Shown one piece after another: positions 1 to 61,965 of a stretch of DNA of 64,000 nt. The translations under genes were made by a program, and so were the position numbers. Source of the DNA: Escherichia coli (GTDB taxonomy: Bacteria; Pseudomonadota; Gammaproteobacteria; Enterobacterales; Enterobacteriaceae). The stretch lies in the NCBI RefSeq assembly GCF_030013205.1, contig NZ_CP122648.1, one strand, 5' to 3'. The notes under the pieces were generated by a model. That model made no database searches. It had not been told where the DNA came from and worked only from the letters and a program-made list of their open reading frames with translations. Within the stretch, counting starts at the first letter, position 1, and every line of letters begins with the position of its first letter.

Positions 1-63
1 AGTTCCGGCCAGCAGGTTATAAATTTTTACAGTACGTGATTGTTCACTCATTCTGAATGCCAT
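1..63 (-). CDS. tfa: Tail fibre assembly protein Tfa, N-terminal 21 codons only (gene runs off window start)
   Basis: Reverse complement of 1-63 translates [21 protein letters not shown], matching lambda-type Tfa N-terminus; ATG overlaps stf stop (TAATG). Confidence 0.7.
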   Translation of the reverse strand, partial: MAFRMSEQSRTVKIYNLLAGT

Positions 64-1724
64 TATGCAAGCCTCACAATATAATTAAATGCGATGTTTT
101 TAACGGTGTTTTCCGCGTTACCAGCAGCGTTAACGGTGATGGTGTGTCCATGTGAACCAATCGCAACAGAGTGCGTATGAGCGCCAATACCAACAGTGTG
201 TGCATGTGCCCCAGCACTTGTAGCGGTACCTGATACTGAGTGGGTATGTGCGCCAGAAGAAGGCACAGTTCCATTCCCCACCACCGTGCCACTTGATGCA
301 CCATCAAGCCAGTCGAAATTCATACCTCCACTGTTTGGTCTCCTTAATGGAACGGTATGTGTATGTGCGCCAGCACTATTTGCAGTACCAGATACATTGT
401 GGGTATGTGCACCAGTGTTATTCGTTGATTTAGTACCGTAATCAAACGACGATGTGGTTTTCGTACCCAAATCCGTACTGGATGCGCTGGCACTGTGGGT
501 GTGCGATTTAATGCCATCCTGTTCCTGAGACAATACGGCCCGACCACTGGCGGGTTTGCCCTTGATTGTCCAGCCGCGCATATCTGGAATAACACCAGAA
601 GGATAGGCAATAGCCAGTTTCGGATATGCTGCCTTATCAAACGTCTGCCCCTGCATGATTGCATAACCTGCAGGTGGCGTATCTGATGGCCACGGCAGCG
701 GAACACCTGGCGGAAACGCTTCAATATTTGCCGAGCCGTCAAATTTTACGCCGTTAATTGTCCTTGCCGTTTTCAGCTTTGTTGCTGTAGCAGCATTGCC
801 GGATAGTTCGCCAGAAAGACCACCGCTGAATGTCTGTTTCGCCGCCCATGTCTGAGCTTCGTCGATAATTGGCACACGTCTTGTCGTAATCGTGCGGCTT
901 CCCGGATTTCCTGAAATGCGAACCATAAAAAAGCGGTAATTCGCTTTACTTGCAGTGCTGCGCCATACATGCATTGAGCGCCCCGTACCGAAATCATCAC
1001 TCGGACCAACTGCGATGTTTATCAGGTTGCCATCAATGACGCCCCAGTCCATACCGTCGGGAATATTGGTCATGTTATCAAGCCGAACGGTTATCAGACT
1101 GCCCGGCACAAAATCGTAGGTCTGCCAGTCCAGGCTGGTGAGTTTTGCCACTGCGCCACCGATCCCCATATTCAGGGGCAACGAAAAGGAGTTATACACT
1201 TCTCGCCATTCGGTCCATGTGCTCCCGGCGTAGACGCGCTCAAAAGTGCGCCCCTGTGTGGTTTCTGATTTCCCTGTGGTTGTGTAACGCTGCCAGACAG
1301 ATACACCATCAAAACGCCTGATTACTTCCAGTATCCCAAGCAATGTCGCCCCAGCAGCGTCCAGCATCGGACCGTTTGTCGCCTTTCCTGTAACACTGTA
1401 AATACCGGGGTCGGTTAGAACATTCAAATCACCTTCGTAATAACGGCTCTCTGACTGATGACCGACTCTTAACCACGGTTCCCACTGCGGATTTGATGCA
1501 TCCCAGCTTGCCGCAAGGCAGCGAACGTACATATTCCCACGACGAGTGGTATAACGTTGCGTTCTTCCATAATTCCCGCCTTCGAGGATCTCAAGCGTCC
1601 CCTGAGCAAAGCCGCCTTCCTCTGGATAATTGCGTTCATATGAAGCTATAGCCGAGCTACTGTTACGCCATAAACCAAGATGCTCAGCGGCTCCAAGCGT
1701 ATTCAGGTCTATAGTCGTACTCAA
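63..1724 (-). CDS. Side tail fibre protein, lambda Stf-like C-terminal region
   Basis: 553-aa ORF; C-terminal half has [52 protein letters not shown], His-rich GAHTH/GAHAH boxes and ends NYIVRLA; followed by tfa. Confidence 0.8.
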
Positions 1725-2000
1725 AGGGCGGGTAGTTCAAGAAGCTGTTCCGGAGCGTTTGTTGATGATCCCGATCTGCATAAAAATATTCTTATTTGCT
1801 ATCCGTATGGTAACTATGAATATGACAATATTATCTATGTTGAAAAGAAAACTAATGCATTGGGCGTTGTTGTGACGTATGCACAGACTGCACGAGACGA
1901 TGCTGAATAAGATACTACAGAGATAGTCCACTTTTTTGTTTATTTGTCGGGATAAAAACAAATTACCCCGACTCACCATGTATTAATCTTCCGCTTTAAG

Positions 2001-2384
2001 TTAGTCTTGTAGCTGCGCTGTCCTGCTATGCAGCAAAGCGGCGTACTTTAATGCGTCCTGTGCTTTCTGGAATTTAAGTGCATAGTCAGTGGCGATTTTT
2101 TCCAGTTCAGCGATTCGGTTGTCTTTGGTTTCCAGCCAATCAAGTAGCGCCAATACTTCAGGATCCCCGACATCCAACACTGTTACGCGTGATTTTTCAT
2201 AATGTTCGTCGGCAAGAGTTCGACCAATTTTGAAATCTCCATCATCACCATAACCGGAGCAGCCATAAACAACCTGTGCTCCAGATATTCGCTGAATTGA
2301 CATTTCTTCGCCGCAAATAGGGCATTTTGGTACTGGTGCAGGTGAATAACGTTCACGTAATGCCTGATAGTTGATTTTGCTCAT
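2001..2384 (-). CDS. Hypothetical protein, CPxCG zinc-ribbon-like motif plus predicted C-terminal coiled coil
   Basis: 127-aa ORF with ATG start, same strand as stf; no recognisable family. Confidence 0.4.
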   Translation of the reverse strand: MSKINYQALRERYSPAPVPKCPICGEEMSIQRISGAQVVYGCSGYGDDGDFKIGRTLADEHYEKSRVTVLDVGDPEVLALLDWLETKDNRIAELEKIATDYALKFQKAQDALKYAALLHSRTAQLQD

Positions 2385-2447
2385 TAAGTCGCTCTTCTTG
2401 TTTATGTTCTGAGATGGAGATCAGGGCGAACTCGCCCTGACGTTGTG

Positions 2448-2876
2448 TTATTCAGGAAATAACGCCCTGATATTTCCGGCCATCTGACTGGTTATCTGTG
2501 CGGTTGGTACTGGCTGTGACAGGGGGCGTTCTGTCCTGGTTTGTGTCACTGATAACGCCTCATCGTCAGCCCATGCAGCCAGTCGGTAAGCCTCTGCCGG
2601 ATTCATTTTCAGAAGTGCCAGCCCGGCCAGAAAAGCCACGCGTTGGCCGCTTTTGCGGGCTTCCGGTGTAAGGCTGTCCAGCCAGGCGCATGCTTCGCTT
2701 TCGTTCTTGACGGCCGCAGGCTTCAGATAGAAACTTATCTGAGTAAGTCTGAATGTGTTCAGTTGCTGGATGCACTGGCTGAAAATCCCGATGAACGGCT
2801 GGCTGTCGAAATCCTTCTGTCGACCGGGGCGCGATGGGGCGAGGTAGCGGTACTGGAGCAGCGCCGTGTTCTTCAT
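2448..2876 (-). CDS. Hypothetical ORF, possibly an orphan 3' gene fragment; 5' part is antisense to integrase fragment
   Basis: 142-aa ORF; only the part below ~2700 lies outside the integrase fragment; no convincing RBS for internal starts. Confidence 0.2.
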   Translation of the reverse strand: MKNTALLQYRYLAPSRPGRQKDFDSQPFIGIFSQCIQQLNTFRLTQISFYLKPAAVKNESEACAWLDSLTPEARKSGQRVAFLAGLALLKMNPAEAYRLAAWADDEALSVTQTRTERPLSQPVPTAQITSQMAGNIRALFPE

Positions 2877-3221
2877 TGTCGAATCACTTTTTCAAAAACG
2901 AAGAACAGCAAAAACCGTACCGTTCCTATTTCTGAAAGCCTGTTTGAAAAGATCAAAAAACGGGGCGGGAAACTGGTGTTTCCGACGCTGGATTATCCAT
3001 TGGTTCGCGATGTCATCAAAACGGTCGCATCTGATGTTCCTGACGGCCAGGCTGTTCATGCGCTGCGCCACACCTTCGCCAGTCATTTCATGATGAACGG
3101 CGGCAATATTCTGACGCTCCAGAAAATTCTGGGGCACGCAAAGATTCAGACAACGATGATTTATGCCCATCTTGCGCCGGATTACTTGCAGGATGCGGTG
3201 AGATTTAATCCAATAGCTTGA
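2730..3221 (+). pseudogene. Tyrosine recombinase (P2 Int family), C-terminal catalytic domain only; N-terminal half absent
   Basis: Motifs LSTGARWGE, HALRHTFASHFM, LGHAKIQTTMIYAHL resemble P2 integrase C-terminal half; frames upstream of ~2700 show no integrase-like sequence. Confidence 0.65.
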
Positions 3222-3231
3222 AGGTAGGAAA

Positions 3232-3615
3232 ATGAAAGATATTGAACATTCAGGGGAAATGGAAAAGAAAAAACGGGAGTTTATTAAAAAACTGGAATCG
3301 ATAACGCCAAGAGAATTCTTCCGTTTTTTAAATGAAAAAAACGTCACTGTGGTTTGCCTTGGGTGCGGACTGAAAGATACCCAGATAACTGCCACTACAG
3401 GTAAGTTAAATCTCCAACAACTCCTGGATGGTGAAAAAGGGGAAGAGTTTATGACGTACTTCAGGCTTGAACCAGGTCACCCAGGTGATAGTGATGCGAA
3501 TTATTACTACAAATCTTTTTGTGAGAACTGCGGTTATATAACTATGCATGCAGTGACTCCGGTATTGAACTGGTTGGGATCGCAAAAAAACCAGGAAGGG
3601 TCAGGTGATGAATGA
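3232..3615 (+). CDS. Hypothetical protein with two CxxC pairs (zinc-ribbon-like), low-GC cargo gene
   Basis: 127-aa ORF, AGGTAGGA RBS 5-12 nt upstream of ATG, 10 nt after integrase stop; CLGC and CENC motifs. Confidence 0.55.
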   Translation: MKDIEHSGEMEKKKREFIKKLESITPREFFRFLNEKNVTVVCLGCGLKDTQITATTGKLNLQQLLDGEKGEEFMTYFRLEPGHPGDSDANYYYKSFCENCGYITMHAVTPVLNWLGSQKNQEGSGDE

Positions 3616-3907
3616 GTATACTTATATCACGGGTTTTTCCATTCCGTATCCAGGAGGAATTCAGGTGAGCAATCGCAGAAGTCAGGCAAGTCGTGATGAG
3701 TTCGCTCTTGATAGCCGTGTTGCACGAATGGAGTCTGATATCTCATACATCAAGAGAGATATTGAAGAGCTGAAGAGCGATCTCAAGGATGTGAGAGGCG
3801 ATATTGATAAGATACGCACAACAGATTTCAGGCTCATGTTTGGTGCGTTGATTACTACAGCCTTGGGGTTAGCTGGCTTAATGGCGAGAGGTTTTCACTG
3901 GATTTAA
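3605..3907 (+). CDS. Hypothetical small membrane protein: coiled coil plus C-terminal transmembrane anchor
   Basis: 99-100-aa ORF (GTG 3605 or ATG 3608) overlapping upstream stop (ATGAATGA); AGGAAGG RBS; hydrophobic C-terminus FGALITTALGLAGLMARGF. Confidence 0.55.
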   Translation: MMNEYTYITGFSIPYPGGIQVSNRRSQASRDEFALDSRVARMESDISYIKRDIEELKSDLKDVRGDIDKIRTTDFRLMFGALITTALGLAGLMARGFHWI

Positions 3908-4015
3908 GATCCACAAAGTGACCACATCTCTGTTATTTGTTGTGGTTGGCTGTGTTTTTGTGTGTCTGTAAGTCTTTGATAATTATCTAACTTATTGATT
4001 TTTGTTTGTGTTTAT

Positions 4016-4040
4016 GGCCGCTCTGCGGCCTTTTTTCTTT
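4016..4040 (+). terminator. Rho-independent terminator-like hairpin upstream of btuC
   Basis: GGCCGC-TCTG-CGGCC stem-loop followed by TTTTTTCTTTT. Confidence 0.45.
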
Positions 4041-4098
4041 TCACTGTCGAAGAGTCACCGTAAAATCAACGCCATGACACTTCAGCAGAACGGATACC

Positions 4099-5079
4099 AT
4101 GCTGACACTTGCCCGCCAACAACAGCGACAAAATATTCGCTGGTTATTATGCCTGTCAGTTTTGATGCTGCTGGCGCTTCTCTTAAGCCTTTGCGCCGGT
4201 GAACAATGGATCTCGCCAGGTGACTGGTTTTCTCCTCGAGGCGAACTGTTCGTCTGGCAGATTCGCCTGCCACGTACGCTGGCTGTATTGCTGGTTGGTG
4301 CGGCGTTGGCTATATCCGGCGCTGTAATGCAGGCGTTATTTGAAAATCCTCTGGCAGAACCTGGACTACTTGGCGTCTCTAATGGCGCAGGCGTGGGGCT
4401 TATCGCCGCGGTATTGCTTGGGCAAGGGCAACTCCCCAACTGGGCGCTGGGGCTGTGTGCGATTGCTGGCGCGCTTATCATCACTTTAATACTCTTACGT
4501 TTCGCCCGTCGTCATCTTTCGACCAGTCGGTTATTGCTGGCTGGCGTTGCATTAGGGATTATCTGTAGCGCACTAATGACGTGGGCTATCTACTTTTCCA
4601 CCTCTGTTGATTTACGTCAGCTGATGTACTGGATGATGGGCGGTTTTGGCGGCGTAGACTGGCGGCAAAGCTGGCTGATGCTGGCATTGATCCCCGTGTT
4701 GTTGTGGATCTGTTGTCAGTCCAGACCGATGAATATGTTAGCACTTGGCGAGATCTCGGCGCGGCAACTGGGTTTACCCCTGTGGTTCTGGCGCAATGTG
4801 CTGGTGGCAGCGACCGGCTGGATGGTTGGCGTCAGTGTGGCGTTGGCGGGTGCTATCGGCTTTATTGGTCTGGTGATCCCACATATTCTCCGGTTATGTG
4901 GTTTGACCGATCATCGCGTATTACTTCCCGGCTGCGCGCTGGCAGGGGCGAGCGCATTGCTGCTGGCCGATGTTGTAGCGCGCCTGGCATTAGCTGCTGC
5001 AGAGCTGCCTATTGGCGTGGTCACCGCAACGTTGGGTGCGCCGGTGTTTATCTGGTTATTGTTAAAAGCAGGACGTTAG
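4099..5079 (+). CDS. btuC: Vitamin B12 ABC transporter permease
   Basis: 326-aa ORF matching K-12 BtuC; btuCED order. Confidence 0.95.
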
Positions 5080-5693: not shown

Positions 5694-6442
5694 TGTCTAT
5701 TGTGATGCAGTTACAGGATGTTGCGGAGTCTACCCGCCTGGGGCCGCTTTCTGGCGAGGTTCGGGCTGGGGAGATCCTGCACCTGGTGGGGCCGAATGGC
5801 GCGGGTAAGAGTACCTTACTGGCGCGAATGGCCGGAATGACCAGCGGTAAGGGAAGCATTCAGTTCGCGGGGCAACCACTGGAAGCATGGTCCGCAACAA
5901 AACTCGCGCTGCATCGCGCCTATCTTTCACAACAACAGACGCCACCGTTTGCAATGCCGGTCTGGCACTACCTGACACTGCATCAGCACGATAAAACGCG
6001 TACCGAACTACTGAATGATGTCGCAGGGGCGCTGGCTCTTGATGACAAACTCGGACGTAGCACCAAGCAACTTTCCGGCGGCGAATGGCAACGCGTACGT
6101 CTTGCTGCGGTGGTGCTGCAAATCACACCACAAGCCAATCCCGCAGGCCAATTGCTGCTTCTTGATGAGCCGATGAACAGTCTTGATGTTGCGCAACAAA
6201 GTGCATTAGACAAAATTCTGAGCGCGCTGTGTCAGCAAGGACTGGCGATTGTGATGAGCAGTCACGATCTCAACCATACATTGCGTCATGCGCATCGGGC
6301 GTGGTTGCTAAAAGGTGGAAAAATGCTGGCCAGTGGACGCAGGGAAGAGGTGCTCACGCCGCCAAATCTGGCGCAGGCCTATGGGATGAATTTTCGCCGT
6401 CTGGATATCGAAGGTCACAGAATGCTGATTTCGACCATCTGA
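5693..6442 (+). CDS. btuD: Vitamin B12 ABC transporter ATP-binding protein
   Basis: 249-aa ORF with Walker [10 protein letters not shown]; start overlaps btuE stop. Confidence 0.95.
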
Positions 6443-6519
6443 TTTCATTAGTATCTTGAAAATCGGGTAATTACGACGCTAAATTAATGCAAGAATAAAA
6501 AACAGAGGAACCGTACGGA

Positions 6520-28636: not shown

Positions 28637-28773
28637 CGTGTAATGGCTGCATGAAATAAACAATAAAATATAAATAACATTATCAGCCTGCTGACGGCTT
28701 GAAGAGAGTCACAGTATCTTGTGCAACATTATTGGAAAGCGTGAGGGGCGAGGTAGCGAAGCGGAAAAATGTT

Positions 28774-28879
28774 AAAAAAAAGCCCATCGTGGGAGATGGG
28801 CAAAGACTACACACAGCAATTCGTTGTTTCACTCAGGGGATTTCCATGCTTATAAATCAATATGTTGATTTATAACCGT
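28774..28879 (-). ncRNA. rprA: Small regulatory RNA RprA
   Basis: Reverse complement matches RprA (ACGGTTATAAATCAACATATTGATTTATAAGCATGG ... GCCCATCTCCCACGATGGGCTTTTTTTT), between ydiK and ydiL. Confidence 0.85.
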
Positions 28880-34317: not shown

Positions 34318-34510
34318 TTCTGACTTAATGCCGCAATTTCGCCAAATCGACCTGGATTAACCTCCGTCCAGGTTCGATAACCTTCTTAATACTGCTTATC
34401 TACCCGCCTGATATTGTTCAAAAATAATACTAATCGCAGTTTGTGTTAAAACGGCGGGTTAGCTTTATGAGATTATTCTTATCGCCCCTTCAAGAGCTAA
34501 GCCACTGAGA

Positions 34511-34583
34511 GTGCCGGAGATAAGCGCCGGATGGGGTAGAAACCCTTAAGCCTGTGTCGCACAGACTTAAGGGTTTTCTTATT
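34511..34583 (+). ncRNA. rydB: Candidate small RNA (position and structure consistent with RydB)
   Basis: Structured segment ending in CCCTTAAG...CTTAAGGG hairpin plus TTTTCTT, between ydiH and sufA; RydB sequence not recalled, ends approximate. Confidence 0.4.
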
Positions 34584-52248: not shown

Positions 52249-52554
52249 TCAGGCGAGTTTTGCCTGACTGATTTGACTAAGTGGCTCATTGACATCGAAA
52301 ACTTTGGCGACAACTTCCTCAACGCCGAGATTTTTCAGTCGGGCAGTATGTTTTTCCAGATAGGCAAGGGCGTTTTTTTCATCAGTAAAAAGGTAGATCC
52401 CACCGGCTTCGTGGTTCTTTTCACTTTCTGTCCATACCTTCCACAGAAAACCAGGTTCCTGATTAATCGACTCAGCAAGCGGTTTAAGCTGCTCAGCCAT
52501 TGCGTCGCCAAATGGGCCATTGAAAGAAAAATGAAGTTGTAACAAAGTTGCCAT
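52249..52554 (-). CDS. ydhR: Putative monooxygenase YdhR
   Basis: 101-aa ORF matching K-12 YdhR. Confidence 0.88.
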
Positions 52555-52662
52555 AGCGATTCTCCTTCTGATAACGCATACGAAGACAGTGTAAATCTTT
52601 TAACGTATTGGATACAGAGAAGAAACAGAGGGAAAAAAGGAGAAGACCAGATTAAGAAAATC

Positions 52663-52739
52663 TGGTGCGTCCGAGTGGACTCGAACCACCGACCCCCACC
52701 ATGTCAAGGTGGTGCTCTAACCAACTGAGCTACGGACGC
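52663..52739 (-). tRNA. valW: tRNA-Val (anticodon GAC)
   Basis: Reverse complement reads GCGTCCGTAGCTCAGTTGGTTAGAGCACCACCTTGACATGGTGGGGGTCGGTGGTTCGAGTCCACTCGGACGCACCA; valV/valW label by synteny. Confidence 0.93.
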
Positions 52740-52743
52740 AGGA

Positions 52744-52820
52744 TGGTGCGTTCAATTGGACTCGAACCAACGACCCCCACCATGTCAAGGTGGTGCTCTA
52801 ACCAACTGAGCTATGAACGC
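52744..52820 (-). tRNA. valV: tRNA-Val (anticodon GAC)
   Basis: Reverse complement reads GCGTTCATAGCTCAGTTGGTTAGAGCACCACCTTGACATGGTGGGGGTCGTTGGTTCGAGTCCAATTGAACGCACCA; 4-nt spacer to neighbour. Confidence 0.93.
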
Positions 52821-61412: not shown

Positions 61413-61710
61413 TCCATTTCACTCCAGACCCTAACTTCAGCTCCTGCAAAATCGCAAGGTAAACGTTTGCCTTTACACACCTTACGCACAACAAAAGTGT
61501 TGCGGTACGCCGGAAAAACGACACGGAGCGTCAGGAAGGGGTCAATGGCCAGTACGCAAATAGTGTAAGCGTGGAATTTTGGCCGATCTTGACGAAAAGG
61601 GGAAGTGGTAAAAACACTTATCATTATAAATGACGGGAGATTTTTTCATCACAGTGTGTAAAAATGCGTAATATCACTTTTTGTGTGGTAATAAAAAAGG
61701 AGAAAACTTG

Positions 61711-61800
61711 ATGAGCACCGACCTTAAATTTTCACTGGTAACAACGATTATCGTCCTCGGTTTGATCGTGGCCGTGGGTTTGACTGCCGCGCTGCACTGA
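61711..61800 (+). CDS. ynhF: Small membrane protein YnhF (29 aa)
   Basis: ATG at 61711 after GGAGAAAA RBS encodes MSTDLKFSLVTTIIVLGLIVAVGLTAALH; below ORF-track size cutoff. Confidence 0.7.
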   Translation: MSTDLKFSLVTTIIVLGLIVAVGLTAALH

Positions 61801-61965
61801 TTTCCTCTCGAGGGAGCGCGTTCTCCCTCGCATCTCCTTCCTGTTTGTTAGCAAAATGGCAAAAGTGTTTTCTCTTTTTGTTATTTTCATTTTTTTGTGA
61901 TTGCTGTCATGCTTTCGCCACTTTAATGAATATCGCGTAATGACGCGAAGAGGTGGAGATAAGGC

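Follow-up and report, generated by a model that had tools for sequence, protein, structure and literature searches.

A parR/stbB-like gene of a P88-like prophage beheaded by a 4,611-bp deletion in pig-associated Escherichia coli, most likely a nonfunctional remnant

In the 64,000-nt stretch of Escherichia coli chromosome analysed here (the window), the ORF listing contains a 142 amino acid long open reading frame on the minus strand (2448-2876, ATG start), the upstream part of which runs antisense to the remnant of a tyrosine integrase gene. This raises the question whether the ORF is a gene, a part of a gene or an accidental open frame. The original prediction described it as an orphan coding fragment, left by a rearrangement that displaced the 5' end of the parent gene and also truncated the integrase. 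Our analysis indicates that the segment 2448-2739 (-) is a parR/stbB-like gene of a P88-like prophage, which was beheaded by one 4,611-bp deletion and is most likely a nonfunctional pseudogene, and we place the probability of this reading at roughly 93%. The segment is indeed a gene remnant, but it is no orphan, because it belongs to the ParR/StbB adaptor family and is already named as such in RefSeq. The locus comprises the following features:

2001-2384, minus strand: Ead/Ea22-like gene (PF13935, E 3.3e-29), the next gene after the parR remnant on this strand
2448-2739, minus strand: parR/StbB-like remnant, codons 8-103 (ISFYLKP...NIRALFPE) and TAA stop
2736-2739: deletion junction with a TATC 4-bp microhomology, of which a single copy is left at this site
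2736-3221, plus strand: tyrosine integrase remnant, codons 150-310 (catalytic domain) and stop, 99.93% identical to positions 6001-6486 of the ETEC6333 locus (L005)
2739-2876, minus strand: in-frame 5' extension of 46 codons (MKNTALLQ...FRLTQ), antisense of integrase codons ~151-196

The ORF 2448-2876 (-) is thus a chimera of a parR-like 3' part and an antisense-integrase 5' part. Its 3' portion had been judged protein-like, and residues 46-115 of the ORF match the Pfam family PF10784 (Plasmid_stab_B) with 81.3 bits and an E-value of 4.5e-23, covering profile positions 2-71 of 72; an intact relative scores 85.8 bits, and the cutoff of this profile is 25 bits. PHROG 2515 ("partition protein") also covers the intact relative from end to end (E 4e-58). 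A large protein collection contained 84 homologues, all with PF10784 and most of them named "plasmid partitioning/stability family protein", while NCBIfam had no model that matches the protein. At the DNA level, 2448-2739 is 100% identical to positions 1102-1393 of the ETEC6333 locus and also to two further loci, L002 and L004. A chance open frame without coding history is therefore refuted for 2448-2739 by the Pfam match, by the 84 homologues and by the 100% match to a gene that phages and prophages have conserved, and we give this reading no weight, although the 5' third of the ORF (2740-2876) does have no ancestry as minus-strand coding sequence. The extension 2739-2876, in which no Pfam match was found, exists as coding sequence solely through the deletion.

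ParR of plasmid ParMRC systems is a DNA-binding adaptor that links the centromere to ParM filaments, and in the solved ParR structures the N-terminal DNA-binding region is a ribbon-helix-helix. Relatedness to these proteins was seen with a profile of 14 homologues, which aligned by hhalign with residues 3-67 of plasmid R1 ParR/StbB (97.7% probability, E 2.4e-12, 31% identity); the R1 sequence had first been verified by its 100% identity to, and its position adjoining parM in, plasmid records. The best PDB match of the same profile was 2jd3, the StbB/ParR protein of pB171, with profile positions 8-75 aligned to residues 10-76 (E 0.0096). The 14-homologue profile was needed to reach 2jd3, because a single-sequence phmmer search of the intact protein against the PDB returned a chance match alone (3r3l, E 1.1). 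Likewise, tblastn of the protein against plasmids (E 1e-3) retrieved seven records and no classical R1-type ParR, so the assignment to the family depends on profile methods. An AlphaFold2 monomer model of the protein has a mean pLDDT of 57, with residues 1-17 below 50; such low confidence is expected for a small protein, the solved relative of which (2jd3) was deposited as two chains.

The gene order of the relatives agrees with this assignment. In the EC291 prophage, ETEC4068, ETEC6333, phage P88, Citrobacter phage Shae_phiSM and phage 520873, parR immediately follows parM on the same strand, and the ParM gene of the relatives matches both ParM domains (PF06406, E 4.9e-82; PF21523, E 1.1e-68). 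The position downstream of parM is found in the relatives L002-L005, L007 and L008 but not in the window, where parM has been deleted; for this reason the remnant stands outside any ParMR operon and is a family member by descent. By homology and synteny, the parent gene is a ParR/StbB-type partition adaptor of P2-type phages (Peduoviridae, Xuanwuvirus, P88-like). By analogy to its plasmid counterparts, the phage protein would bind a centromere-like site and couple this site to ParM filaments. The C-terminal segment of the family, in which a N-I-x-x-x-F-P motif is invariant in the alignment and kept in the window, presumably binds ParM.

The event that shaped the ORF can be read from ETEC6333, a related pig enterotoxigenic E. 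coli (ETEC) that keeps the undeleted layout at the same chromosomal site. Its gene order is ead (-), parR (-), parM (-), a replication endonuclease gene (-), a small hypothetical gene (-), the integrase gene (+), two small genes and btuC. The partition gene comprises 312 nt (L005 1102-1413, minus strand), and the integrase is intact (310 aa, L005 5554-6486, plus strand). The intact partition protein, as translated from ETEC6333, is MTTPTRRISFYLKPAAV...NIRALFPE and consists of 103 amino acids. In local BLAST, window positions 1986-2739 correspond to L005 640-1393 with 100% identity, and positions 2736-4200 correspond to L005 6001-7465 with 99.93% identity. The window thus differs from ETEC6333 by a single 4,611-bp deletion, and side-by-side reading shows the tetranucleotide TATC at both ends of the missing segment (L005 1390-1393 and 6001-6004). 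The deleted DNA contained parR codons 1-7, parM, the candidate centromere repeats, the replication endonuclease gene, the small gene and integrase codons 1-149, and at the junction codon 8 of the parR-like gene (-) now adjoins codon 150 of the integrase gene (+). Deletion is the only sensible direction of the event, because the missing segment restores two intact and widely conserved genes; generation of the ETEC6333 layout by insertion into a junction of the window type is implausible, as the insert would have to restore both genes precisely.

A 4-bp microhomology is a signature of illegitimate recombination. In the mechanism that we propose, illegitimate recombination between the two TATC tetranucleotides would have deleted the 4,611 bp and the same deletion would have beheaded both parR and the integrase gene, which then came to abut head to head; the decapitated parR would persist as a nonfunctional marker of prophage decay. 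The comparison with ETEC6333 confirms that one rearrangement removed the 5' end of the parent gene and truncated the integrase, as was originally suggested, and it also supports a boundary within the ORF; this boundary is sharper than proposed, and it lies at 2736-2739, upstream of the predicted position of about 2700. The remnant is not small, since only 7 of the 103 codons were lost. What remains is I8 to E103 (96 codons) and the stop codon, corresponding to 93% of the gene, while codons 1-7 (MTTPTRR) were deleted together with the original start codon and ribosome-binding site, the latter a GGAG that overlaps the parM stop codon. The 142-aa ORF arises because the parR frame stays open across the junction and through 46 antisense-integrase codons up to an ATG.

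On the other strand, the claim that the 5' portion of the ORF is antisense to an integrase fragment is borne out by the plus-strand frame 2736-3221, which matches PF00589 (E 8.2e-21) and is 99.93% identical to the intact ETEC6333 integrase gene. The fragment lacks the first 149 of 310 codons and the promoter, and a tyrosine recombinase with N-terminal core-binding domain and catalytic domain in one ORF is not present here, the catalytic domain being left alone.

The junction could also be conceived as a recombination chimera of two prophages, i.e. of a P88-like prophage and an unrelated element at the btuC site. P88-like prophages elsewhere use other integrases and other sites, such as the EC291 prophage, which is located between flk and pdxB and the integrase gene of which is about 79% identical over 167 nt only; from this we conclude that the element at btuC is a mosaic. 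In ETEC6333, however, both flanks are contiguous at the same site, with 100% and 99.93% identity and exactly 4,611 bp apart, so any mosaicism predates the event that produced the junction, and the 4-bp microhomology fits an illegitimate deletion and not a homologous exchange. We therefore consider a two-prophage origin of the junction extremely improbable and retain an internal deletion within one prophage as the explanation.

Whether the chimeric ORF is still used as a gene is a separate question. RefSeq/PGAP annotates 2448-2762 (-) as an intact CDS (WP_161418380.1, "plasmid partitioning/stability family protein") and 2763-3221 (+) as an intact CDS for a "tyrosine-type recombinase/integrase", and these two models stand back to back on opposite strands, with a CTG start at 2762 (-) and a TTG start at 2763 (+). 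The 142-aa ORF starting at ATG 2876, or the 104-aa RefSeq model starting at CTG 2762, might accordingly be a functional, expressed ParR variant with a new N-terminus: the frame is open, an ATG is available 46 codons upstream, 93% of the gene and an almost complete PF10784 domain are kept, and PGAP calls the 104-aa model an intact CDS. Yet the new N-terminus consists of antisense integrase codons that occur in seven identical genomes only. R6 and R7, which are invariant across the family alignment and directly precede the likewise invariant ISFYLKP, were deleted and are replaced by T and Q. In the profile alignments to 2jd3 and R1 ParR, ISFYLKP falls at the beginning of the ParR DNA-binding region, and with the loss of codons 1-7 the N-terminal DNA-binding region is incomplete.

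Expression signals likewise argue against a working variant. The original ribosome-binding site and the operon promoter region were deleted, and the remnant has neither the start codon nor the ribosome-binding site nor the promoter of the intact gene. As already noted in the original prediction, the available starts lack good ribosome-binding sites: by sequence reading, no Shine-Dalgarno-like motif precedes the ATG at 2876 (CGTTTTTGAAAAAGTGATTCGACA) or the CTG at 2762. A consensus scan of the minus strand found one weak promoter-like site (3019-2992, 9/12 matches) versus 1.7 expected by chance, i.e. no promoter above chance, and a terminator-like hairpin (2927-2901) lies between this site and the ATG at 2876. 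The partner gene parM is absent from the entire 64-kb window, and the candidate centromere is gone as well. The CTG start adjoining a TTG start on the opposite strand (2762/2763) resembles homology-driven gene calling, and these back-to-back non-ATG starts are probably an artefact of homology-guided annotation. Taken together, a functional ParR variant appears very unlikely.

A related scenario is weak transcription of the chimera, the product of which would interfere with the ParMR system of P88-like phages that enter the cell or already reside in it. Both the dimerisation helices and the C-terminal motif are kept, and the product could act as a domesticated fragment similar to an incompatibility or exclusion factor; we regard this as highly improbable. 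We infer from the sequence features of the remnant that it is most likely neither expressed nor functional. In the 63-nt spacer between the parR stop codon and the ead start codon, we also noticed a perfect, GC-rich hairpin (2421-2440, TCAGGGCGA-ac-TCGCCCTGA), which is conserved in the relatives; it has no T-run on the minus strand and is thus not a typical terminator for parR.

The distribution of the junction is narrow. Window positions 1700-4100 are 100% identical in seven pig-associated E. coli chromosomes, namely K_EC180 and ETEC1748, 4067, 4069, 4070, 4071 and 4079, and of 5,426 complete E. coli genomes, 7 carry the junction, with 100% identity in all cases. The 142-aa product does not behave like a conserved intact gene, in line with the original prediction: the exact product occurs on 7 contigs, whereas one 103-aa protein among those listed for its cluster (793 sequences at 90% identity) is recorded on 647. 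Together with the sequence features described above, this pattern points to a recent, clonal and probably nonfunctional remnant.

The surroundings of the remnant, directly upstream of btuC-btuE-btuD, show further signs of erosion. The order parR-ead is the same in L002, L004 and L005, and the P88-like block that survives in the window is confined to 1731-2739. A second prophage scar is located at 1730/1731 (1724-1731), where homology to the intact P88-like prophage of EC291 starts exactly at 1731. Here, a 5'-truncated tail-fibre gene (63-1724, minus strand) meets the last 60 codons of a PHROG 1416 gene (1728-1910, plus strand), and the portal, terminase, capsid, lysis and baseplate genes that are expected between the tail-fibre and PHROG 1416 genes are absent. 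A simple deletion within an EC291-like prophage was considered for this scar and rejected, since nothing in that prophage matches the tail-fibre DNA to the left of 1730. Towards its C-terminus (63-460, minus strand), the tail-fibre ORF contains repeated histidine-rich units (SGTA-SAGAH-HTV, GAHTHSV), which show up as internal repeats of ~65 nt with 80% identity (192-256 and 351-415).

In ETEC4068, a separate deletion occurred at the same locus (L004 8101-8707 compared to window 3866-4100). It joined a 3' fragment of the replication endonuclease gene almost directly to btuC and removed the integrase gene and the two small genes, while parM and parR remained intact; this deletion is independent of the one in the window. 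ETEC6333 carries an IS1 element left of ead. The site as a whole is a prophage graveyard, in which erosion takes different courses in related strains.

Between the integrase remnant and btuC, two small overlapping genes (3232-3615 and 3605-3907, both plus strand) are conserved beside the integrase in many E. coli genomes. One encodes a 127 amino acid long protein with two Cys-x-x-Cys pairs, which matches phrog_4293 and no Pfam family, and the other encodes a protein of 100 amino acids that has a hydrophobic C-terminus and gives weak matches to XhlA and to coiled coils. Elsewhere in the window, RprA, rydB, two tandem tRNA-Val(GAC) genes and STnc550 (28772-28879, 34484-34544, 52663-52820 and 61413-61803) are landmarks of an ordinary E. 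coli backbone; an Rfam match to HPnc0260 (52538-52701, plus strand) lies partly antisense to one of the two tRNA-Val genes, which probably accounts for the match.

Upstream of parM, the relatives carry two direct repeats of ~39 nt that are 73 bp apart (L005 2409-2447 and 2482-2520) and that are also present in L002, L003, L007 and L008. Each repeat holds an 18-nt palindrome, ACGGGATT-N-AATCCCGT, and a 4-nt spacer differs between the two copies. The repeats cover the end of the replication gene and the short gap that separates it from parM; they lie inside the 4,611-bp deletion, and no similar repeat sequence is present anywhere in the 64-kb window. They are about 97% conserved in the five loci, a conservation that is too high to be informative. 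The repeats are a candidate parC-like centromere or operator of the phage ParMR module; our literature search did not find them described.

The phage family is homologous to the ParR (StbB) proteins of the type II ParMRC systems of R1/NR1 and pB171, with PF10784 scores of 81-86 bits. Both proteins are small (103 aa for the phage protein, 117 aa for R1 ParR), both have a basic pair in front of the conserved N-terminal stretch (RRISFYL in the phage family, RRTIAFKL in R1 ParR), and in the intact phage-type relatives the gene directly follows parM on the same strand, as in plasmid ParMRC. In contrast to R1 ParR, the phage protein ends at the conserved NIRALFPE and lacks the longer tail, the candidate centromere comprises two ~39-nt palindromic repeats instead of ten 11-bp iterons, and the carriers are integrating P2-type phages, whereas R1 and pB171 ParR are encoded on plasmids. 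The copy in the window further differs from plasmid ParR by the absence of codons 1-7, of parM and of the repeats.

Among the closest known counterparts are the partition proteins encoded by Xuanwuvirus members including Escherichia phage P88 (PHROG 2515; called "parP" in Citrobacter phage Shae_phiSM), which belong to the same family and share 88-95% DNA identity. The module is the same as well, in the order replication endonuclease, parM, parR, accessory genes and portal. The phage copies are complete, with 103 amino acids, their own start and coupling to parM, whereas the copy in the window is 5'-truncated within a decayed prophage. On ParM/ParR in P2-like prophages, our literature search retrieved no work dealing with P88-type phages in particular, and only the analogous AlpAC system of the Corynebacterium prophage CGP3. 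AlpA/AlpC is a prophage-encoded pair of an actin-like ATPase and a DNA-binding adaptor, and according to two reports (PMC4446434, PMC5539076) the system supports viral DNA transport and replication. AlpA/AlpC may serve as a functional analogy for a phage that carries a ParMR module, in a host of a different phylum. That P2-type Xuanwuvirus phages carry a putative ParM/ParR module is a mildly interesting side point of our analysis. With respect to decay, the locus is a typical example of grounded or cryptic E. coli prophages, in which replication, integration and morphogenesis genes are lost by internal deletions and truncated genes abut each other.

In conclusion, the ORF belongs to a known gene family that is already publicly annotated, and the locus is an ordinary deletion scar of a decaying prophage that holds no new biology. 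Both RefSeq CDS models (2448-2762 and 2763-3221) are better treated as pseudogene remnants, and the junction is a lineage marker of use in annotation and strain typing. With 2736-2739, the exact breakpoints are fixed for a 4.6-kb internal deletion in the btuC-adjacent P88-like prophage, a deletion that, in a small clone of enterotoxigenic E. coli from pigs, disabled its replication, partition and integration/excision functions.
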